Notes under the pieces: generated by a model | The model's input: only the letters and a program-made list of their open reading frames with translations | What the model was told of the DNA's origin: nothing | Database searches by the model: none | DNA from: Acutalibacteraceae bacterium | GTDB taxonomy: Bacteria; Bacillota; Clostridia; Oscillospirales; Acutalibacteraceae | Direction of reading: 5' to 3' | Assembly: GCA_036308405.1 (NCBI GenBank) | Contig: JAXJVR010000041.1 | Location: 1 to 39,570 of the forward strand | Length of the DNA stretch: 39,570 nucleotides | Part shown: positions 8,666-24,088 of the stretch, piece by piece | Numbering within the stretch: position 1 is the stretch's first letter | Layout: each line of letters opens with the position of its first letter | Position numbers and translations under genes: made by a program

Positions 8666-9575
8666 TAAAACTATTAACACAAAAAAATGCTTTAAAATCG
8701 TTATGATTGTTTATGCCGTTTTATTTGTTATAGGCATAATAATGACTGTTGTCTTCGGTCCTAAACTTGACATTAACTTCAGCGGCGGCACAAAGATTTC
8801 TTATTCATACACAGGCGAAATTGCCGAAAATGACTTTAAAGACACCGTAGCTACCGCTCTTGATAAAGAGTTTACCGTCGGAAAAAACACATCTCTTGCA
8901 GGTGATGTTAACTCTTATGTAATTACTCTTGCAGGCAAAAACTCTATCTCGGCTGAAACGCAAGAAAACATCACACTTGCTTTGGAAGAAAAGTTTGCCG
9001 ACAATGAAATTGAGCTTTACGACTCAACCTCCATCAGTCCTACAATAGCCGGCACATTCTTTATTAAAAGCTTGGTAGCGGTTCTTATAACGGCAGTGCT
9101 TGTTATAATTTATGTCGGTATCCGTTTCAGAAAAATAGGCGGTGTATCGGCTGCGATTACAGCGTTCTGCGCACTTATACTCGACCTGCTTGTTGCGTTC
9201 TTTATATGCGTAATATTCAGACTGCCGATAGATATGAACTTTATGGCTGTAGTTCTTACAATTCTCGGTTATTCGCTTAACGATACAATAGTTATCTATG
9301 ACCGTGTCCGTGAAAACAAACGCCTCCACCCCGAACTTTCGGTTGGTGAAAATATGGATTTGAGTGTTTCAAGCACACTTGTTCGTAACATAGTTACAAC
9401 CGTTACAACCGTTTGTGCCGTGCTTACAATAGTTGTTGTATCCGAAGTGTTCGGTCTTACATCATTGCGTTCGTTTGCAATACCCATGGCATTCGGTCTT
9501 GTATCAGGCTGTTTCTCATCATTGTTTGTATCAGGTCCGTTGTGGGTAATATACAAAGAAAGAAAAGCAAAATAA
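8658..9575 (+). CDS. secF: Protein translocase subunit SecF
   Basis: DINFSGGT motif and a C-terminal RND-like TM block (GYSLNDTIVIYDRVREN). Confidence 0.9.
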   Translation: MADKTINTKKCFKIVMIVYAVLFVIGIIMTVVFGPKLDINFSGGTKISYSYTGEIAENDFKDTVATALDKEFTVGKNTSLAGDVNSYVITLAGKNSISAETQENITLALEEKFADNEIELYDSTSISPTIAGTFFIKSLVAVLITAVLVIIYVGIRFRKIGGVSAAITAFCALILDLLVAFFICVIFRLPIDMNFMAVVLTILGYSLNDTIVIYDRVRENKRLHPELSVGENMDLSVSSTLVRNIVTTVTTVCAVLTIVVVSEVFGLTSLRSFAIPMAFGLVSGCFSSLFVSGPLWVIYKERKAK

Positions 9576-15018: not shown

Positions 15019-15957
15019 ATGGCAAAAAAAAATAATTTAAAGGGCAGTCTTATATTGTGCACTGCGGCTTTACTTTGGGGACTTGCGTTCGTGGTGCAAA
15101 ACCGAGCCGCCGATAAAATACCGCCTTTTACATTTAATGCCATGCGCTCTTTTATAGGTGCAATATTTTTGTTTGCTTTTATGGGTATAATGTCAGGCAA
15201 AAACAAAGAATATGTGCCCATCCCCAAAAATTTTGATAAAAAACTGCTTTTTACGGGCAGTATGGTCTGCGGCGTGGTGCTTGCCGTATCGACCAACTTT
15301 CAACAGTTCGGCATAGCCGCATATCCTGACGGAGTGCCTACAGAAGCGCGCTCGGGCTTTTTAACCGCGCTTTATGTAATTATAGTGCCTATTATGTCGG
15401 TGTTTGCCAAAAAGAAAGTGCCTGCTGTGGTCTGGATTTCGGCGCTTGTGGCGCTCGGCGGCTTTTATATACTCTGCCTTTATGAAGGTGTAAGCGGTTT
15501 CTATTTTGCGGATATTTTGGTTTTGTGTTGCACTCTTGCGTTTTCAATGCACATTATCGTTATAGACAAATACTGCGGTTTGATAGGCGGTGTCAGACTT
15601 TCGGCATTTCAATTTATCTTTTGCGGTATATTTTCGGGAATAATGGCTATTATCTTTGAATTTGATAAAATAAACATTCAAAATATACTCTCGGTTCTGC
15701 CCGAAATTTTATATATGGGCATTGTATCAAGCGGAATTGCCTATACCTTGCAGATAGTAGGTCAAAAATATGCCGAACCGGCAATAGCATCGCTTTCTAT
15801 GAGTCTTGAAAGCGTATTTGCAGCCCTCGGTGGTTGGGTTATCACCGGTAACGCACTAAAAGGCAATGAAATCATAGGTTGCCTGCTTGTCTTTTCGGCA
15901 ATAGTATTAGCGCAGTTGCCCGATTTTTTCAAAAAGAAAAACACCGTAAATACTTAA
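15019..15957 (+). CDS. EamA/DMT-family transporter
   Basis: About 10 TM segments in two repeated halves, with no other motifs. Confidence 0.75.
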   Translation: MAKKNNLKGSLILCTAALLWGLAFVVQNRAADKIPPFTFNAMRSFIGAIFLFAFMGIMSGKNKEYVPIPKNFDKKLLFTGSMVCGVVLAVSTNFQQFGIAAYPDGVPTEARSGFLTALYVIIVPIMSVFAKKKVPAVVWISALVALGGFYILCLYEGVSGFYFADILVLCCTLAFSMHIIVIDKYCGLIGGVRLSAFQFIFCGIFSGIMAIIFEFDKINIQNILSVLPEILYMGIVSSGIAYTLQIVGQKYAEPAIASLSMSLESVFAALGGWVITGNALKGNEIIGCLLVFSAIVLAQLPDFFKKKNTVNT

Positions 15958-15970
15958 ATCAGGTTTACCA

Positions 15971-16010
15971 AAAAGTCTCTGCTTTCATATTTTAAGCAGA
16001 GACTGTTTTT
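15971..16010. terminator. Bidirectional Rho-independent terminator (EamA / spoIIID)
   Basis: AGTCTCTGCTT/loop/AAGCAGAGACT with an A-run before and a T-run after. Confidence 0.7.
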
Positions 16011-16021
16011 AGTTGCACGAC

Positions 16022-16270
16022 CTATTCGCCTTTGTATTTGCGTCTTGTTGCCATTCCCCCGCGTATATGTCGCTCACTCTTGTTTTTTTGCAACACAGCA
16101 TTAACCTGACTATAAAGCCTGCGATTTATATGTAAAAGCCGTTCGGTTACATCTTTATGCACCGTTGATTTGCTGACGCCGAATACCTTTGCGGCGGCGC
16201 GCACGGTGGCGCCGGTATCTACTATGTATTTACCCAACATCTCTGCCCTGTCACAAGAAAACTCTCTCAT
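16022..16270 (-). CDS. spoIIID: Sporulation transcriptional regulator SpoIIID
   Basis: GKYIVDTGATVRAAAKVFGVSKSTVHKDVTERL...RHIRGGMATRRKYK is near-identical in pattern to B. subtilis SpoIIID as I remember it. The RBS AAGGTGG favours the ATG at 16270 over the GTG at 16282. Confidence 0.9.
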   Translation of the reverse strand: MREFSCDRAEMLGKYIVDTGATVRAAAKVFGVSKSTVHKDVTERLLHINRRLYSQVNAVLQKNKSERHIRGGMATRRKYKGE

Positions 16271-16362
16271 ACTACCTACCACCTTAAATGACTTGGTAAA
16301 TTATATGAGAGAGTTGTTTTATTTATGTTTTTATAATTGTGCAAAATCTTAACATCAAAAAC

Positions 16363-17283
16363 CTATACGCTCATTTGCAAATTTTCGGTTACCCAGCGTT
16401 TGTATTTAATAAATTCCTCGTTTTCGGGCGTTACCGACAGCACAAAATTTATTTGTCCCAAAAGTTTTTGTAAATAGTGTTCTTTGGTATCTGTTATATT
16501 CTTATTTTGCATATGCGAGTCAACGCCGTATTCCATACAGTAATACATCGTCTGTCTGATTTTTCGGCGGTAAATTGCGGAGGTGTTCGCTTTTTCATTA
16601 ACAACAATACCGGTTACTATTTTCTTTTGTCCGTCACGCACAACGGTTGTCTTTTTATTATTTAGATAAAAACCGTATTTAGCAAGTTCTGATTTTACAA
16701 ATTCTATGACCTCGTTAGGTTTAAAACTGCCCGAAAAGGTCATATCGTCGCAATAACGGGTGTATGTAATACCTCCGTTTTTGCACCAAGCGCCCACCGC
16801 ATTGTCAAAATCTTTCATAATAATGTTTGAAATCGCGGGAGAAGTCGGCGCGCCTTGCGGCAACGCTTCATGAAAACTGCAAATTTGAGCCAAAATCATA
16901 GCAACTTTGTCAGAAAAAATCTCTTTTGAAAAGGCGCCTAAAATCATCGAAAAAGTAATTTTGTCAAAGAAATGGCGAATATCCAATTTTAAAAGCGTGT
17001 TGTTATTTATATGCGGTTTTGCATTTGCAAGCGGACTGCCGCCCGGTCTGTACGCGGTAGCGTATGGCGAAATCTCGATAATAGGCAAAATCACATTATC
17101 AATTCTTTTTTGCACAGTTTTAAGTTCATTATCGGGAACTGTAAGTTCGCGAAAACCGCCGCTGTTTTTCGGAACACTTGCCTTATGATAATGCTTTTCA
17201 GGTCTGTTGCCGAGTGTATATAAATGCTTTAAAGAAAAGCCCAAATCTGCGCAAAGGGAGGAAAGTTCACGATAAACAATCAT
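16363..17283 (-). CDS. Retron-type reverse transcriptase (306 aa)
   Basis: RT motifs 1-7 are present: FRELTVPDNELKTVQKRI, DIRHFFDKI, LPQGAPTSPAISN, YTRYCDDMTF and NNKKT. It also has the retron-specific signatures NAxxH (LANAKPH) and VTG (KIVTGIVVN). The RBS GGGGAGGGAAG lies 8 nt before the ATG. No extra fused domains. Confidence 0.85.
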   Translation of the reverse strand: MIVYRELSSLCADLGFSLKHLYTLGNRPEKHYHKASVPKNSGGFRELTVPDNELKTVQKRIDNVILPIIEISPYATAYRPGGSPLANAKPHINNNTLLKLDIRHFFDKITFSMILGAFSKEIFSDKVAMILAQICSFHEALPQGAPTSPAISNIIMKDFDNAVGAWCKNGGITYTRYCDDMTFSGSFKPNEVIEFVKSELAKYGFYLNNKKTTVVRDGQKKIVTGIVVNEKANTSAIYRRKIRQTMYYCMEYGVDSHMQNKNITDTKEHYLQKLLGQINFVLSVTPENEEFIKYKRWVTENLQMSV

Positions 17284-17290
17284 TAACTAA

Positions 17291-17476
17291 CTTCCCTCCC
17301 CTTTACAAAAAACGAAACAATACAGTGTTGATATTCAAGTTGCGAAACTGATTTTGGTGCACATGAAATGTGTTTTAAATCAGTGAGAGCAATCTTGAAT
17401 TGAGCATAAGCAAATGTATGCAAATGTGCAATCCCGAAAGCGACTCGCCGTTTTAACGTTTTTACAGCCTTCCCCT
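17291..17476 (-). ncRNA. Candidate retron msr/msd non-coding RNA
   Basis: Sits directly between the stop of the upstream gene and the RT start. It contains a 68-nt imperfect hairpin at 17400-17333: ATTCAAG-a-TTGC-tctc-ACTGATTT...AAATCAGT-ttc-GCAA-CTTGAAT, with an inner CACAT/ATGTG stem. Smaller stems lie 5' of it, including GCATA...TATGC. The a1/a2 repeats and the branching G are not confidently identified, so the boundaries are approximate. Confidence 0.5.
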
Positions 17477-19102
17477 TTACCACTCGTAAAAATTAACCAA
17501 AAACTGACAACTGCTGCTGAAACTCGGGTTTTTCTCTATAAATTTATACAGTGAATTATATGCTTCTGCTTTAGGTATGCTGTAGTTTTTTATGCCTTTA
17601 TATTTTTGTTTTTCTTTTAAATCATCAACAGTAAATGATTGCGAATCTGCATTATTGTCAAAATAATCATATAAATATGCCTGCGACAAATAATATTGAG
17701 CTTCTTTTGCAATTTCCGGCTTTTTACTGCAAGCAAGTTTTGTAATATACGGTATGCCCTCGTCGCCCAACTCATACATTGCATATATGTCTATGTTTTT
17801 GAGTCTGCCGGTTTTATAGGCTTCATAATTGTATTTTGCGGACACGGCATTTACATTTACCGTTCCCAAAACAAATATCACACAGCCTGCGGTTATAATT
17901 GCTGTTTTTAAAACATTTATTTTAGAAATATAAATGCGCAAAATTACACTTATAAAAACTATGGCTAAAAACAGCATAAAAGAGCTTGTCGTTATTCTTA
18001 ACACGGTCATACCGAAAGATTTTATATAAAGCACCATTTTTGAAACAGCAGTTGCAATTATTATGAGTGTAAAAACCGATATAAAGGTGCAAAAAGCTTT
18101 TATTGCGTAGTTTAATTTTCCGTTGTTTTTTTTAGATAAGAGTATACACAAAGCCGTAACGGCTAAATTTATTACGGCTATTACGCACATTTCAAAAAAG
18201 CCTTTTCGGGCGTATTGCGAAACATTAAACTTGTAACCCGACGGCAAAATCCCGCTGAAAGCGCTGAAAAAATACGCAAGCTGTGAAAACAAATAAAGCA
18301 AATAACAAGCCGATATAACGCTTAAAAAAGAAATAACATATATATTTTCAACGCCCTTAAAATTACACGGTTTTAACTGCGCACTCAAGCCTTTTTTAAC
18401 AGAAAATCCGTATGAAATTACAATCAGCGACATACCTAAACCCAATATAATTTTTAAAATTGTATTAAAAGAGTTGCTGAAAATATTTTCAACAAGTCCG
18501 CTGAACGCATCGTCAGATGAAATAAGCAACGGAACTATAATAATAAGCATCGGTATTGCGCATATCATACCGATAAATACTTTAATAACTTTTTTGCTGC
18601 CGTTACCGTCAAATAAAGATTTAACCGAAATCAAAATGTTACCAACACTTGAAAATGCCGAATAAAAAGTGTTAATAACCGCTTTGTTACCGCGGCGGCG
18701 AGTATTTATAAAACCATCAAAAAACATTATACAAAGCAAAAATATTATAATTACCGCAAAAAATTTTACACTTGCATTGGTAGTGCTTATAAACACCGCA
18801 GAATTCATTACTGTCAACAAGCCGTAAAAAACAGATGTTAATTTTATTTTTTGTTTATTTACAAAATATAAACTTATAAGCACTGTAAGCATAACCGTTG
18901 ACAGCGTATATCCGAGCGCAAAATTAAAAATTCCGAACAAAGCCGTAAAAACACAGCATACAACGGCTCCTACCGCAAATAATATATCTTTTTTATTTAT
19001 CGCAAAAGTTTGTTTTACAACTGTTGAACTATCTTTGTCTTTTTCAGAATTAAAATCTGTTTGGGCACATTCACATTCTTGAATATTATTCTCAAAATTC
19101 AT
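17477..19102 (-). CDS. Large polytopic membrane protein (541 aa), DUF4153/DUF4173-like by recollection
   Basis: At least 10 hydrophobic segments followed by a soluble C-terminal ~110 aa tail (YNYEAYKTGRLKNIDIYAMYELGDEGIPYI...). It starts 4 nt after the HTH gene stop. Confidence 0.7.
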   Translation of the reverse strand: MNFENNIQECECAQTDFNSEKDKDSSTVVKQTFAINKKDILFAVGAVVCCVFTALFGIFNFALGYTLSTVMLTVLISLYFVNKQKIKLTSVFYGLLTVMNSAVFISTTNASVKFFAVIIIFLLCIMFFDGFINTRRRGNKAVINTFYSAFSSVGNILISVKSLFDGNGSKKVIKVFIGMICAIPMLIIIVPLLISSDDAFSGLVENIFSNSFNTILKIILGLGMSLIVISYGFSVKKGLSAQLKPCNFKGVENIYVISFLSVISACYLLYLFSQLAYFFSAFSGILPSGYKFNVSQYARKGFFEMCVIAVINLAVTALCILLSKKNNGKLNYAIKAFCTFISVFTLIIIATAVSKMVLYIKSFGMTVLRITTSSFMLFLAIVFISVILRIYISKINVLKTAIITAGCVIFVLGTVNVNAVSAKYNYEAYKTGRLKNIDIYAMYELGDEGIPYITKLACSKKPEIAKEAQYYLSQAYLYDYFDNNADSQSFTVDDLKEKQKYKGIKNYSIPKAEAYNSLYKFIEKNPSFSSSCQFLVNFYEW

Positions 19103-19106
19103 AAAA

Positions 19107-19313
19107 TCAATCCCCTTCCGAATATTTAATTATGTCTCCCGGTTGACAGTCAAGCACTTTGCAAATCGCATCAAGCGTAGAAAAGCGTATTGCTTTAGCT
19201 TTTCCTGTTTTAAGTATAGAAAGATTTGCGGGCGTTATGCCGATTTTTTCCGAAAGCTCAAGCGATGTCATTTTACGCATCGCAAGCATTACATCTAAAT
19301 CAATTTCTATCAT
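19107..19313 (-). CDS. Small HTH transcriptional regulator (YozG/COG3655-like, 68 aa)
   Basis: MTSLELSEKIGITPANLSILKTGKAKAIRFSTLDAICKVLDCQPGDII is a Cro/C1-type HTH with the typical YozG-like C-terminus. Confidence 0.8.
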   Translation of the reverse strand: MIEIDLDVMLAMRKMTSLELSEKIGITPANLSILKTGKAKAIRFSTLDAICKVLDCQPGDIIKYSEGD

Positions 19314-19328
19314 AAAATACCTCTGTCT

Positions 19329-19796
19329 TTATATTGTAAGTTGATTTTCTTCGCTAATTTCGACGGCGTTCTGCATAACATTTTTTACAATGCGAAGCAT
19401 AAGACCTACAAATGCGGCAGCCGCTGTTATAAAAAGAAACGGAATATAGAATATTCCCCCGACAAGCGTTATAACTGCAACCGCAAAACAACACCAAGAA
19501 ATACGGCGAAGATACTTTATATTTTGTGTAATAAATATTTCTTCTTTTTTTATATTGAAAAGCAATTTTATAAGACTGTAAAGGGTTACATAAGCAAATA
19601 TCGCGCAGGGATAAAAACACGCTTTAAACAAAACAAGCATTTTATTTAGAGCAAAACCGTTTTTGTCAAAGCCGCGGTATGCTGTAAACCAAATTTCTAC
19701 AATTTTAGGTCCTGCAAAAACAAGAACCGTAAGAATAGCCAAAAATGCAAAGCAAACCGCAATAGATAATATTACCGAGCGTTTTCTGTTCCACAT
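19329..19796 (-). CDS. DUF2975-like four-TM membrane protein (155 aa)
   Basis: The start is moved to ATG 19796 (MWNRKRS...), which is preceded by GGAGG. The longer track ORF would begin inside the promoter -35 element. The C-terminal ...EENQLTI ending is as in DUF2975 proteins that pair with YozG-like regulators. Confidence 0.7.
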   Translation of the reverse strand: MWNRKRSVILSIAVCFAFLAILTVLVFAGPKIVEIWFTAYRGFDKNGFALNKMLVLFKACFYPCAIFAYVTLYSLIKLLFNIKKEEIFITQNIKYLRRISWCCFAVAVITLVGGIFYIPFLFITAAAAFVGLMLRIVKNVMQNAVEISEENQLTI

Positions 19797-19827
19797 AAAA
19801 TTACCTCCGATGGAATTATTTGTTATT

Positions 19828-19890
19828 ATAATATCATCAAAATTATCGTTTGTCAATAATTATTTTATTGAAAAACGATAATTTATTATC
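19828..19890 (-). promoter_or_regulatory. Promoter plus palindromic operator for the membrane/HTH/(retron) operon
   Basis: Minus strand TTGACA (19856-19851), 17-nt spacer, TATTAT (19833-19828). A 39-bp palindrome at 19843-19881 (TTATCGTTTGTCAATAA-ttatt-TTATTGAAAAACGATAA, 17-bp arms, one mismatch) overlaps the -35. A second palindrome, GATAAT-tt-ATTATC, lies at 19877-19890. Confidence 0.55.
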
Positions 19891-19933
19891 AAATAATAAT
19901 AATCCTATTCCGAACAATAGTTTTTTATATACT

Positions 19934-19967
19934 AAAAATCCCCGACTGATGTCGGGGATTTTTTTAA
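19934..19967. terminator. Bidirectional Rho-independent terminator after nth
   Basis: AAAAATCCCCGAC/tgat/GTCGGGGATTTTTTT. Confidence 0.78.
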
Positions 19968-19989
19968 GTTTATGCAAACCGTTATTTAA

Positions 19990-20619
19990 TTATTTGCTTT
20001 TTGACGGACAAATTTCTGCAAGGGGGCATTTTTCGCAATAAGTCTTGCGCGCCGTGCATATATCGCGCCCGAAAAGCACCGTTCTGTGACAAAAATCATT
20101 TGATTTTTCAGGCGGCAATAATTTGAGCATCGCCTTTTCAACTTTTAGCGGGTCGGTGGTTTTTACAAGACCCAAGCGGTTACACAACCTTATAAAATGC
20201 GTGTCGGTCACTACGGCAGGCTTACCGTATATATCACCGCAAACAAGGTTGGCGGTTTTTCTGCCCACACCCGGCAGACGGATTAACTGCTCAACCGTGT
20301 CGGGCACACAACCGTCAAAATCACTTACAATCATTTGTGCAATGCCCACCAAATCGCGCGCTTTTGTTTTATAAAGTCCGCAGGTTTTTATAAGGTTTTC
20401 TATATCCTCTACCGTGACTTTTGCCATACTTTTAGCATCGGGATATTTTTCAAAAAGAGCAGGAGTTACAATATTAACGCGAGCGTCGGTGCATTGCGCC
20501 GAAAGTCTTGTTGCGATAAGCAGTTGAAAAGCGTCTTTATAATTAAGCGAGCAAATTGCCGTGGGATACAGCTTTTCAAGCTCCTCTACCGCTTTTAAAG
20601 TCTTTGACTTTTTATCCAT
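19990..20619 (-). CDS. nth: Endonuclease III (DNA glycosylase/AP lyase)
   Basis: HhH-GPD motif (LPGVGRKTANLV) and a C-terminal 4Fe-4S cluster motif C-x6-C-x2-C-x5-C (CTARKTYCEKCPLAEIC). Confidence 0.9.
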   Translation of the reverse strand: MDKKSKTLKAVEELEKLYPTAICSLNYKDAFQLLIATRLSAQCTDARVNIVTPALFEKYPDAKSMAKVTVEDIENLIKTCGLYKTKARDLVGIAQMIVSDFDGCVPDTVEQLIRLPGVGRKTANLVCGDIYGKPAVVTDTHFIRLCNRLGLVKTTDPLKVEKAMLKLLPPEKSNDFCHRTVLFGRDICTARKTYCEKCPLAEICPSKSK

Positions 20620-21889: not shown

Positions 21890-24088
21890 TTATTTATCAC
21901 GATTTCTGAAACCGCGTCTGTTGCGATTGCCGTCGTTTCTGCGAGGCGGAACATCATCCGCATCGTCTTCAACAACTGCGCCGTTTACCTCAACAAGCGC
22001 GTCACGACGTGAAAGGTTAATTCTGCCCTGGTCGTCGATTTCGGTAACCTTAACGATAACCTGGTCGCCTACCGCTACTACATCTTCAACCTTTTCAACG
22101 CGTTTAACATCAAGCTTTGAAATGTGAACAAGACCTTCTTTACCGGGTGCGATTTCAACAAAAGCGCCGAATGTCATAAGTCTTGTAACCTTACCGCTGT
22201 AAATTGCGCCGATTTCGGGGTCGTTTGCAATAAGATTTATTATGTCTATAGCCTGTTTTGCCTTATCAATATCAAGTCCTGAAACAAATACATGACCGTC
22301 TTCTTCGATATTGATTGTGCAATCGCACTGCTCTTGTATAGACTGAATAACCTTACCCTGCTTACCGATAACATCACCGATTTTGTCGGGGCTGATTGTT
22401 GTGGTGAGCATTTTGGGAGCATAGGGTGAAAGTTCCTTACGGTATTCGGGTATACACTTGAGCATTACTTCATCAAGAATATATTTACGAGCCTTATTTG
22501 TTTTAGCAAATGCTTCTTTAATAATTTCGGGGGTAAGACCGTGAACCTTAAGGTCCATCTGAATAGCGGTAATACCCTTGTGTGTGCCTGCTACCTTAAA
22601 GTCCATATCGCCGTAGAAATCTTCAAGTCCCTGAATATCTACCATAGTCATAAAGTCGCCGTAAACGCCGTCATCACCGGTGATAAGACCGCATGAAATA
22701 CCTGCAACGGGGGCTTTAATAGGCACACCTGCCGCCATAAGCGCAAGAGTTGAACCACAGATAGAACCCTGCGAAGTAGAGCCGTTTGAAGAAAGCACTT
22801 CGCTTACTACACGGATAGCATAGGGGAATTCCTCAACAGAAGGAATAACCGGCAAAAGCGCGCGTTCAGCCAAAGCGCCGTGACCGATTTCACGACGGCC
22901 GGGGCCGCGTGATGGCTTTGTTTCACCTACTGAATATGAGGGGAAGTTATAGTGGTGGATATAACGCTTGCTTACCTCTTCGTCAAGACCGTCAAGCTTT
23001 TGAGCCTCGCTTACTGGTGCTAATGTTGCAACCGAAAGAACCTGTGTTTGACCGCGTGTAAACAAACCTGAACCGTGAACACGGGGAAGCAGGTCAACCT
23101 GCGCGTCAAGAGGACGGATTTCATCAATACCGCGTCCGTCAACACGCTTGCCCTCATCCTTAAGCCAAGAGCGAACAACATGCTTTTGAACAAGATACAA
23201 AATCTCGTCAATTTTTGCTTCGCAACCTTCAAAACGCTCATCAAACTTAGCGTGAACAGCGTCATATATAGGAAGCAATGCCGCGTCACGAACATTTTTA
23301 TCGTCGGTGTCAAGCGCTTTTTTTACATCTTCAATGCAAAACTCTTCGATTTCTGCCATGATTTCGGGGTCGGGGTTGCTTGACTCAAAAGCAAACTTTT
23401 CTTTACCGATTTCGGCAACTATGCCGTTGATAAACTTAACGATTTCTTTATTTACCTCGTGACCTGCCATAATACAGTCAAACATAAGGTCATCCGGAAT
23501 TTCGTTACCGCCTGCCTCTATCATAGCAACCAAGTCTGCTGTAGAAGAAACCGTAAGTGTAAGGTCGGTTTTAGCGCGTTGTTCAAGTGTGGGGTTTATA
23601 ACAATTTCACCGTCAACAAGACCTACCGCTGTGCTTGCAATAGGGCCGTCCCACGGAATATCGGATACTGCTATAGCGGCAGATACACCGATAGCGGCAG
23701 TGATTTCGGGTGAGCAGTCGGGGTCAACCGACATAACAGTTGCAACAACAGAGCAATCGTTGCGCATATCTTTCGGGAAAAGCGGACGGATAGGTCTGTC
23801 TATACAGCGTGAAGCCAAAATTGCCTTTTCGCTTGCCTTGCCCTCACGGCGCTGGAACGAACCGGGGATGCGGCCTACGGCATACATTTTTTCTTCAAAA
23901 TCAACAGAAAGCGGGAAAAAGTCGACGCCCTCACGCGGTTTTGAAGATGCGGTTACCGTGCAAAGCACGCTTGTGTCGCCGTAAGAAGCCATAAAAGCGG
24001 CATTTGCAAGGCCTGCCATTTTACCTGTTTCAAGCTTAAACGGTCTGCCTGCAATGGTGGTTTCGTAAACCTTGTAGTTTTCAAACAT
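21890..24088 (-). CDS. pnp: Polynucleotide phosphorylase (polyribonucleotide nucleotidyltransferase)
   Basis: Two RNase PH domains, a KH domain (IGKQGKVIQSI) and an S1 domain (YSGKVTRLMTFGAFVEI), then an Arg-rich tail. Confidence 0.97.
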   Translation of the reverse strand: MFENYKVYETTIAGRPFKLETGKMAGLANAAFMASYGDTSVLCTVTASSKPREGVDFFPLSVDFEEKMYAVGRIPGSFQRREGKASEKAILASRCIDRPIRPLFPKDMRNDCSVVATVMSVDPDCSPEITAAIGVSAAIAVSDIPWDGPIASTAVGLVDGEIVINPTLEQRAKTDLTLTVSSTADLVAMIEAGGNEIPDDLMFDCIMAGHEVNKEIVKFINGIVAEIGKEKFAFESSNPDPEIMAEIEEFCIEDVKKALDTDDKNVRDAALLPIYDAVHAKFDERFEGCEAKIDEILYLVQKHVVRSWLKDEGKRVDGRGIDEIRPLDAQVDLLPRVHGSGLFTRGQTQVLSVATLAPVSEAQKLDGLDEEVSKRYIHHYNFPSYSVGETKPSRGPGRREIGHGALAERALLPVIPSVEEFPYAIRVVSEVLSSNGSTSQGSICGSTLALMAAGVPIKAPVAGISCGLITGDDGVYGDFMTMVDIQGLEDFYGDMDFKVAGTHKGITAIQMDLKVHGLTPEIIKEAFAKTNKARKYILDEVMLKCIPEYRKELSPYAPKMLTTTISPDKIGDVIGKQGKVIQSIQEQCDCTINIEEDGHVFVSGLDIDKAKQAIDIINLIANDPEIGAIYSGKVTRLMTFGAFVEIAPGKEGLVHISKLDVKRVEKVEDVVAVGDQVIVKVTEIDDQGRINLSRRDALVEVNGAVVEDDADDVPPRRNDGNRNRRGFRNRDK

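Follow-up and report, generated by a model that had tools for sequence, protein, structure and literature searches.

The window analysed here is a 39,570-nt contig from an Acutalibacteraceae bacterium in which the gene of a retron reverse transcriptase (RT) follows, on the minus strand, a compact operon for two membrane proteins and an HTH regulator. This layout raises the question of whether the membrane proteins are the effector of the retron or neighbours that it acquired by accident. The initial annotation put forward the first reading, a non-canonical effector module, and named an insertion accident as a caveat. The minus-strand order is DUF2975, HTH_26, DUF4153, a 193-nt gap between DUF4153 and the RT, the retron RT, and spoIIID. 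The gene coordinates and the gaps of 15 nt (DUF2975 to HTH) and 4 nt (HTH to DUF4153) agree with the initial annotation. The main features are as follows.

19934-19963: bidirectional terminator hairpin after nth, with a 13-bp perfect stem and T-runs on both sides
19840-19884: putative operator; an inverted repeat of 20 nt with 95% complementarity and a 5-nt spacer, which overlaps the -35 hexamer
19828-19856, minus strand: sigma-70-type promoter of the module, TTGACA-17 nt-TATTAT with extended TG, matching at 11 of 12 positions
19329-19796, minus strand: DUF2975 (YoaS-like) small membrane protein, 155 aa (Pfam PF11188, E 1.5e-18)
19107-19313, minus strand: HTH_26 Cro/C1-type (YozG-like) regulator, 68 aa (Pfam PF13443, E 1.4e-22)
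17477-19102, minus strand: DUF4153 polytopic membrane protein, 541 aa (Pfam PF13687, E 4.7e-64), with its stop codon at 17479-17477
16363-17283, minus strand: retron RT, 306 aa, intact ORF (Pfam RVT_1, E 7.6e-23; PADLOC RT_Ec107-like)

The start of DUF2975 was placed at ATG 19796, behind GGAGG, and the same 155-aa protein was called in sister contigs. The mechanical ORF call, with a start at TTG 19856, was rejected, as this TTG is part of the -35 hexamer.

The transcription unit from DUF2975 to the RT is limited upstream by the nth terminator hairpin. No terminator-like site was found in its three intergenic junctions, and none in a scan of the 200 nt 3' of the DUF4153 stop, so that two scans bear out what the initial annotation had stated for these junctions. 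In metatranscriptome run X25 one 3469-nt contig spans 16338-19804, and in run X27 a contig covering 17299-18062 crosses the DUF4153/RT junction. These RNA contigs, together with the terminator-free junctions, support the earlier proposal that the RT is co-transcribed with DUF2975-HTH-DUF4153 from the promoter at 19828-19856. In X25, depth was zero over spoIIID and most of nth; the Logan contigs, being assemblies rather than reads, give no strand information and a flat depth per contig. Because the DUF4153-RT gap holds no terminator, all transcription of the RT would come from read-through that starts at the module promoter. Some carry-over of DNA into the RNA runs is formally possible; the sharp contig ends speak against it.

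We compared the operon with its relatives. The order DUF2975-HTH-DUF4153 was kept in all 38 informative DUF4153 relatives (those with upstream DNA), with DUF2975 always first (39–78% identical) and the HTH protein 72–94% identical in the 38. No RT was found within 6 kb of any of 40 DUF4153 relatives, even at tblastn E<=10, nor was SpoIIID or Nth found near any of the 40. These results bear on both comparative checks that the initial annotation had suggested: among these relatives, membrane and HTH genes with no RT are the rule, and none of the 40 homologues of the 541-aa protein lies beside a retron RT. A control region of approximately 60 nt, promoter and putative operator included, was nearly identical in 34 of 34 relatives. 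A terminator lies just 3' of DUF4153 in 32 of the 40 relatives, and a terminator score of at least 14 was reached in 31/40 compared with 19/200 control stretches. The linker at 17452-17476 in the window sits where this terminator would be expected.

The Pfam DUF2975 + HTH pair and the 20-nt inverted repeat over the -35 hexamer (half-sites TTATCG/CGATAA) place the module among YoaS-YozG-type operons of Bacillota, for which upstream inverted repeats have been proposed as an autoregulatory operator (bioRxiv 10.64898/2026.09.15.751765). It shares with these the gene pair, its order, and an AT-rich upstream region with promoter-overlapping inverted repeats; the window and at least 38 relatives differ in the addition of a fixed third gene, DUF4153 (~540 aa, polytopic). 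The HTH protein presumably binds the inverted-repeat operator, and the module is probably an autonomous operon that would be repressed by its own HTH protein. In the ancestral operon DUF4153 comes last, and it is the fixed third partner of DUF2975-HTH in this lineage. The AlphaFold model of DUF4153 is all-helical (pLDDT 71.6) and gave no fold match against the PDB (best E 0.19, TM <0.2), and thus no functional lead; PADLOC and NCBIfam gave no matches to DUF2975 or DUF4153.

The RT carries NAKPH at residues 87-91, YCDD at 177-180 and VTG at 223-225, read from the translation. It thus has the YxDD box together with the NAXXH (region X) and VTG (region Y) motifs as defined by Mestre et al. 2020 (PMC7736814), and is of the retron type. 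Of the PADLOC models, RT_Ec107-like fits it best (E 7.7e-124, over the full length), and it groups with the Ec107-like and III-A PADLOC models, not with the 2TM types; against the NCBIfam retron St85 family it scores 232 bits at a cut-off of 235. Its relatives belong to Acutalibacteraceae and Oscillospiraceae and have an upstream region of their own, with a full msr-msd RNA gene directly upstream of the RT. Among 16 RT-relative contexts, none had the DUF2975-HTH-DUF4153 module and no neighbouring gene was common to them; copies 97–99% identical to the window's RT likewise lack the module. The module is thus conserved and the RT found elsewhere with other partners, in substance the pattern that the initial annotation had named as speaking against its effector reading. 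Stand-alone cassettes have been reported in the Ec107 branch (Mestre et al. 2020, PMC7736814), and by profile models and gene context the retron is assigned as a stand-alone Ec107-like retron of the clade 2 branch. With Retron-Eco5 (Ec107) and the clade 2 stand-alone cassettes it shares the best PADLOC model, NAXXH + VTG, an upstream RNA gene and the lack of a conserved accessory gene. Its host, a Clostridia gut bacterium, sets it apart from clade 2 retron RTs, which are mostly from Gammaproteobacteria (Mestre et al. 2020, PMC7736814), as do an RNA gene cut at the 5' end and an RT on a foreign promoter. Neither component of the locus is of a new kind: one is a stand-alone Ec107-like retron, the other a YoaS-YozG-type operon.

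The junction between the two comprises the following features.

17452-17476, minus strand: 25-nt linker of non-retron origin, homology to the intact loci L051 and L054 ending at 17451, which puts the rearrangement junction at 17451/17452
17313-17451, minus strand: 5'-truncated retron RNA gene (nhmmer, family profile)
16955-17451, minus strand: segment present twice in island-bearing sister strains (self-blast of merged contig k141_70072)
17175-17180, minus strand: crossover interval of the window, with copy-A bases up to 17180 and copy-B bases from 17175

The intact form of the RNA gene is a 204-nt msr-msd gene, and 13 relatives share its a1/a2 helix, an invariant G, two msr hairpins and the msd hairpin. 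The helix shows compensatory changes at 4 of 8 pairs across the family; the invariant G, within a conserved AG, is directly 3' of a1 in 13/13 intact relatives and, from its position, would be the branch point; and TATAAT lies approximately 10 nt before a1 in several relatives. In L051 and L054, whose RTs are 97–99% identical to that of the window, a1 is AAAAACGAAACA, perfectly complementary to a2, and the match to the window starts only at 17451, going downstream. The window holds a2 (TGTTTCGTTTTT, 17308-17319) and lacks the a1 repeat. It matches the family profile at model positions 38-174 of 175 (nhmmer, E 1.2e-23), and positions 1-37, including the invariant G, have no match anywhere in the window. 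The long msd hairpin is intact (~17333-17400); of the two msr hairpins, the first is absent and the second is a remnant (~17433-17450) without its three outer pairs. The window therefore has neither the upstream region native to the retron nor a1, the invariant G or msr hairpin 1. The putative ncRNA that the initial annotation saw abutting the DUF4153 stop is indeed a retron RNA gene, of which only the 3' two-thirds remain, starting at 17451.

Since these conserved 5' elements are missing, the window's retron can very probably no longer prime msDNA synthesis. A 7-bp pairing, AAAAACG/CGUUUUU, is still possible between the linker and a2, as read from the sequence. In an RNAduplex search for alternative a1 partners upstream of 17440, an A/U-rich region, 90% of shuffles were as good; the native L051 a1/a2 duplex is itself unexceptional by this measure in A/U-rich sequence. 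Single-sequence folding of the 193-nt gap was uninformative (z-score -0.71), and an Rfam scan of 15500-20500 found no retron family, with sub-threshold chance matches at the nth terminator and the AT-rich region only. Both ends of the gap carry the 10-nt direct repeat GTAAAGGGGA. It was rejected as a target-site duplication because the copy on the downstream side is the ribosome-binding region of the retron, which is conserved and present in all relatives.

Sister strains show where the missing part lies. Their order is DUF4153, a partial retron copy A, a variable island of approximately 9.4 kb, an intact retron copy B, and spoIIID. Copy A extends from RNA gene position ~69 to RT codon 109, and contig k141_70072 carries both copies, 9890 bp apart. 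They form a 497-nt direct repeat with 93.4% identity; the copies differ by ~5–7%, compared with 0.3–1.3% between strains in the flanks, and 11 synonymous and 7 non-synonymous codons distinguish them. These codon differences hint that copy A is what is left of an allele that once worked, and not a recent duplicate. Among the island genes are a WYL regulator and a polymorphic toxin/immunity pair; Pfam and PADLOC searches of its unknown ORFs found no integrase and no retron effector, with WYL/WCX and SHOCT as the only matches.

The window itself is an A/B chimera that switches at 17180/17175. Approximately 20 island-less contigs from different assemblers and samples have the same arrangement with an intact RT ORF, every one of them is an A/B chimera, and none has a pure A-type full-length RT. 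Including the RNA contig, they show four different crossover intervals, the window's and three others. The island-less form predominates in several metagenomes. In the bovine-gut samples X1-X3 the Logan contigs pass 17451 without a branch, and in a fourth, X4, the contig graph branches exactly at 17451/17452, with a depth of 3.6 for the intact 5' flank versus 25.6 for the DUF4153 flank.

The observed gene content, truncation, repeats, chimeric bases, RNA contiguity and absence of a conserved association very likely reflect two unrelated units that were joined by a deletion, the junction being a recombination scar and not a new retron defence system. The first unit would be the autonomous YoaS-YozG-type operon, whose promoter and operator are its own, as is the terminator seen in relatives; the second would be the stand-alone Ec107-like retron just upstream of spoIIID. 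Homologous recombination of copy A with copy B would have deleted the island and, with it, the upstream region, a1 repeat, invariant G and msr hairpin 1 that belong to copy B. The full-length RT ORF would then be a hybrid, with codons 1 to ~35 from copy A and the remainder from copy B. The locus resembles known cases of island loss between flanking direct repeats in its 497-nt repeat, its ~9.4-kb segment, the single chimeric repeat left behind and the varying crossovers. It differs in that the repeat is a retron fragment, made up of a portion of the RNA gene and the RT N-terminus, so that each deletion would also disable the retron and fuse the RT to the neighbouring operon. The caveat of an insertion accident was thus the correct reading of the adjacency, at a junction that cuts the retron RNA gene.

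The direction of the event, from the two-copy to the island-less state, is one that we infer. Under the opposite history, the island-less form would be ancestral, and the island with the 5' half of a retron would have entered later by a single crossover (Campbell-type) into a resident RT. The A/B divergence of ~5–7%, far above that of the flanks and mostly synonymous, fits an origin of copy B from another lineage. However, the island-less contigs all combine A-type bases with a B-type 3' part, with four switch points and no pure A-type RT; since all are A/B chimeras, the window must derive from a two-copy state. We therefore regard this history as unlikely, and even if it held, the RNA gene beside DUF4153 would be truncated and the module would be no effector.

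The fusion, once formed by accident, might since have become useful, with the RT under the YozG-like repressor and acting without canonical msDNA, possibly by priming elsewhere, within the linker, or by acting on other templates. Many island-less contigs, drawn from many samples, preserve an uninterrupted RT ORF, the RT is transcribed, the island-less form is predominant in several metagenomes, and the 7-bp complement of a2 persists in the linker. The intact ORFs could result from continued selection or from recent, recurrent deletions, and the four independent crossovers make the latter a sufficient explanation; moreover, all covarying or invariant 5' elements of the family RNA are missing, and the absence of a branch at 17451 in X1-X3 means that there is no intact second RNA-gene copy to complement in trans. 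Such exaptation is distinctly unlikely. A bolder form of the idea, in which the A/B copies are a built-in recombination cassette that, by recurrent crossover, sheds the island and rewires the RT to a repressor-controlled membrane operon, with the RT keeping a selectable msDNA-independent role, strikes us as decidedly improbable.

We return to the reading with which we began, in which DUF2975, HTH and DUF4153 would form a new effector module (membrane disruptor, helper and repressor) that the RT and RNA restrain, in the manner of 2TM (type IV) retrons. The close packing of the genes, their single promoter, the terminator-free junctions and co-transcription with the RT all agree with it, as does a weak PADLOC match of the HTH protein to HTH_VI (E 2e-4, 19.6 bits); the latter, however, is generic HTH similarity. 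A membrane protein gene beside a retron RT on the same strand is likewise found in type IV retrons with 2TM effectors, but in the window the association is not a conserved one and the RT is of another clade; the window's membrane genes lie upstream, under their own promoter and operator, and are not recognized by PADLOC. Against this reading stand the zero co-occurrence from both sides (0/40 module relatives and 0/16 RT relatives), the ~9.4 kb between the units in conspecific strains, where the intact retron adjoins spoIIID and not the module, an Ec107-like/III-A rather than 2TM-type RT, and a junction at which a1, the invariant G and msr hairpin 1 are lost. A literature search for retrons with DUF4153 found no papers. 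The effector module is very improbable, and the membrane proteins are not the retron's effector.

Assembly collapse, in which a contig passed from one retron copy to the other (93% identical) and left the island out, might be suspected in a metagenome-derived window for whose RT protein one 39570-nt NCBI contig is the only recorded source and whose repeat includes identical stretches of up to ~69 nt, but it is hardly credible and was rejected on the Logan contig evidence, as k=31 contigs, which end wherever a branch occurs, continue across 17451 in X1-X3, the alternative flank in X4 has one seventh of the depth, and ~20 contigs from different assemblers and samples plus one RNA contig show the same arrangement.

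The deletion scar, which was revealed by strain-level comparison, is a warning for defence-system discovery by gene neighbourhood: close spacing, a common promoter and real co-transcription can occur with no functional system behind them. The locus also documents, for Clostridia of the ruminant gut, a family of stand-alone Ec107-like retrons whose RNA structure is well supported. Its intact and 5'-truncated RNA genes, beside near-identical RTs, are a natural allele pair that could be used to test the msr elements for msDNA priming. For the widespread DUF2975-HTH pair, it adds a fixed DUF4153 partner in this lineage and a strikingly conserved operator. The membrane genes are also the more A+T-rich part of the window, as the initial annotation had noted, with a G+C content of 0.32–0.34 at 17501-20000 versus 0.45–0.48 around 22000-24000.

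The locus forms a compact gene run on the minus strand, and coordinates, Pfam domains and a terminator scan confirmed the gene order, gaps and absence of junction terminators described in the initial annotation:

19934-19963, nth terminator, upstream boundary of the minus-strand gene run
19856-19828, minus strand, strong promoter (TTGACA-17-TATTAT, extended TG)
19796-19329, minus strand, DUF2975 gene, real start ATG 19796 behind GGAGG
19313-19107, minus strand, HTH_26 (YozG-like) protein, 68 aa, 15-nt gap after DUF2975
19102-17477, minus strand, DUF4153 protein, 541 aa, 4-nt gap after the HTH_26 gene
17283-16363, minus strand, reverse transcriptase (RT), 306 aa, 193-nt gap after DUF4153
directly following, minus strand, spoIIID, 80-92-nt gap after the RT depending on the start codon chosen

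No terminator-like site was found in any junction of this run. The DUF2975-HTH-DUF4153 module is A+T-rich (G+C 0.32-0.34). Weak Rfam matches at 19876-20003 (MicC, BSnc120 and rimP leader), far below gathering scores, were rejected as chance, all lying on the nth terminator and the adjoining AT-rich region.

The RT is a retron RT: it matched the PADLOC model RT_Ec107-like over its full length (E 7.7e-124) with type III-A models next, its top NCBIfam matches were retron families, and the NAKPH, YCDD and VTG motifs are present (motif definitions from PMC7736814). None of the window's neighbour genes flanks the RT in ten relatives with 53-59% identity, and these ten share no neighbour among themselves. 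Closer relatives (66% and 62%) are located behind yunB and an EF-G-like gene, and three further ones lie in other contexts again. Every relative has a gap of ~200-350 nt upstream of the RT, and 13 of these gaps align as a canonical retron RNA gene with an 8-bp a1/a2 helix (compensatory changes at four pairs), an invariant G directly after a1, two msr hairpins and a long msd hairpin; compensatory change was seen in 20 of the 42 predicted pairs. Several carry TATAAT ~10 nt before a1. This layout agrees with the stand-alone (msr-msd)-RT cassettes described by Mestre et al. in the Ec107 branch of clade 2 (PMC7736814). A hairpin with a T-rich loop (e.g. TGTCCTTTTTATAGGACA), conserved ~20-45 nt upstream of a1 in seven relatives (L001-L004, L007, L008 and L010), lies just upstream of the retron -10 box and may act as an insulating terminator or in regulation.

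Scanning one genome per species gave 40 loci encoding DUF4153 relatives (35-62% identity), mostly from Acutalibacteraceae and Oscillospiraceae MAGs of animal guts. The order DUF2975-HTH-DUF4153 was kept in all 38 loci having upstream DNA. No RT was found within 6 kb of DUF4153 in any of the 40, even at tblastn E ≤ 10, and neither spoIIID nor nth was nearby. The ~60 nt upstream of DUF2975, which include the promoter, were near-identical base by base in 34/34 loci, with three TTATCG/CGATAA half-sites around the -35 hexamer that in the window form a 20-nt inverted repeat over it. This upstream region and putative operator fit the published description of YoaS-YozG operons (bioRxiv 10.64898/2026.09.15.751765). 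The control region (window 19828-19884; 120 nt upstream of DUF2975 in L011-L050, the module relatives) is far more conserved than the module proteins, which are 50-75% identical across 34 genomes (HTH protein, about 90%). A strong hairpin and T-run follows DUF4153 within 160 nt in 32/40 relatives, and terminator scores of at least 14 occurred in 31/40 vs 19/200 random stretches; the window has no such terminator after DUF4153. The conserved triad, its own control region and the usual 3' terminator indicate an operon that is self-contained, apparently regulates itself and has DUF4153 as its usual last gene. The DUF4153 protein is predicted to be helical throughout, including its C-terminal domain, and to have about 12 transmembrane helices; its predicted structure had no fold relative in the PDB, and the protein no match in defence or NCBIfam libraries. 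The evidence best supports describing the module as a YoaS-YozG-type envelope system that is conserved and autoregulated.

The 193-nt gap had been read as holding the retron ncRNA. Two loci with near-identical RTs (L051 and L054, 97-99%) are 98.7-99.1% identical to the window in DNA only from 17451 downstream, and unrelated to it upstream of the equivalent point. There they carry a1 AAAAACGAAACA, the perfect complement of a2 at window 17308-17319, together with TTAGCGC (containing the invariant G) and msr hairpin 1. The family RNA profile (175 positions) matched window 17451-17313 as positions 38-174 (E 1.2e-23), and positions 1-37 had no match anywhere in the 39.5 kb. Homology and profile both begin at 17451; the gap is therefore a 5'-truncated retron remnant behind a 25-nt foreign linker rather than a complete RNA gene.

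Contigs of the same species showed three structural forms. Of the 24 contigs examined for one RT allele, about 20 had the first, that of the window. The second has the order DUF4153, the same 193-nt gap, a 114-aa RT fragment (copy A), ~9.4 kb, an intact retron (copy B) and spoIIID, and is represented by:

L067 9330-18345, continuing in L059 (same contig, ena:ERZ27236854:k141_70072), strain-variable island, window equivalent 17451/17452

The island encodes a WYL/WCX regulator, MscS, a flavodoxin-like gene, STAS, an SDF transporter, Endonuclease_NS_2 (a predicted toxin) with YezG-like (predicted immunity) and SHOCT genes, and several ORFs without family match. In L066 and L068 the far end of the island differs, with a SpoIIE/HATPase gene and an SDF gene of full length. 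The third form, a shorter intermediate (L062 7910-8202; L065 1-55), is a separate internal deletion that keeps copy A only to the equivalent of window ~17189 and runs from there straight into the final island gene (95 aa), with the intact retron after it. The initial annotation had proposed the retron as the tail of a non-canonical effector module; this is refuted both by the comparative evidence (0/40 module relatives with an RT; RT relatives without the module) and by the island separating DUF4153 from an intact retron in conspecific contigs. The module-RT fusion is a recombination scar, and both components, retron and YoaS-YozG-type operon, belong to known kinds.

In k141_70072, copies A and B form a 497-nt direct repeat (window 17451-16955); the two share 93.4% identity and lie 9890 bp from each other. 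Between them, 11 codons show synonymous and 7 non-synonymous differences, a pattern suggesting that copy A is what remains of an allele that once worked. Unlike the other island-bearing strains, L067 has lost a further 10 nt within the msd part of copy A (8843-9329) and carries a single base substitution there, as would fit an unused copy that is decaying. Window bases are of copy-A type from 17456 to 17180 and of copy-B type from 17175 on; other island-less contigs switch at 17301/17239, 17356/17301 or 17412/17373. These four intervals imply that A and B recombined repeatedly and independently. No full-length RT of pure A type was seen, and the window thus derives from a two-copy ancestor. 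Assembly collapse was rejected as the origin of the island-less form: k=31 Logan contigs of three metagenomes (X1-X3) cross 17451 without a branch, and hence gave no sign in those populations of a further, intact copy of this RNA gene; in a fourth (X4) the copy-B 5' flank had a depth of 3.6 vs 25.6 for the DUF4153 flank.

The locus was present in three bovine metatranscriptomes. Co-transcription of module and RT, previously suggested, was supported by assembled contigs, which carry no strand information: one of 3469 nt in X25 spans 16338-19804, and one in X27 spans the DUF4153/RT junction. The X25 contig, with its A/B switch at 17356/17301, ends just downstream of the predicted start site and 25 nt beyond the RT stop codon, with zero depth over spoIIID and almost zero over nth; such sharp ends argue for RNA over DNA carry-over. 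In all conspecific contigs spoIIID lies immediately downstream of the retron; 16283-16362 holds no obvious terminator, though the X25 contig ends at 16338 and spoIIID depth is zero.

Each deletion would cost the retron its native upstream region along with a1, the putative branching G and hairpin 1, and would leave DUF4153 without a terminator. Expression of the RT would then depend entirely on read-through from the module, presumably with the YozG-like repressor in control. Both an a1/a2 duplex and a branching G are required to prime msDNA (PMC7736814); the window-form retron, lacking a1 and this G, is very probably inactive. It is possible that the RT is still in use in the island-less form; recent, recurrent deletions can explain the intact RT ORF in many contigs.
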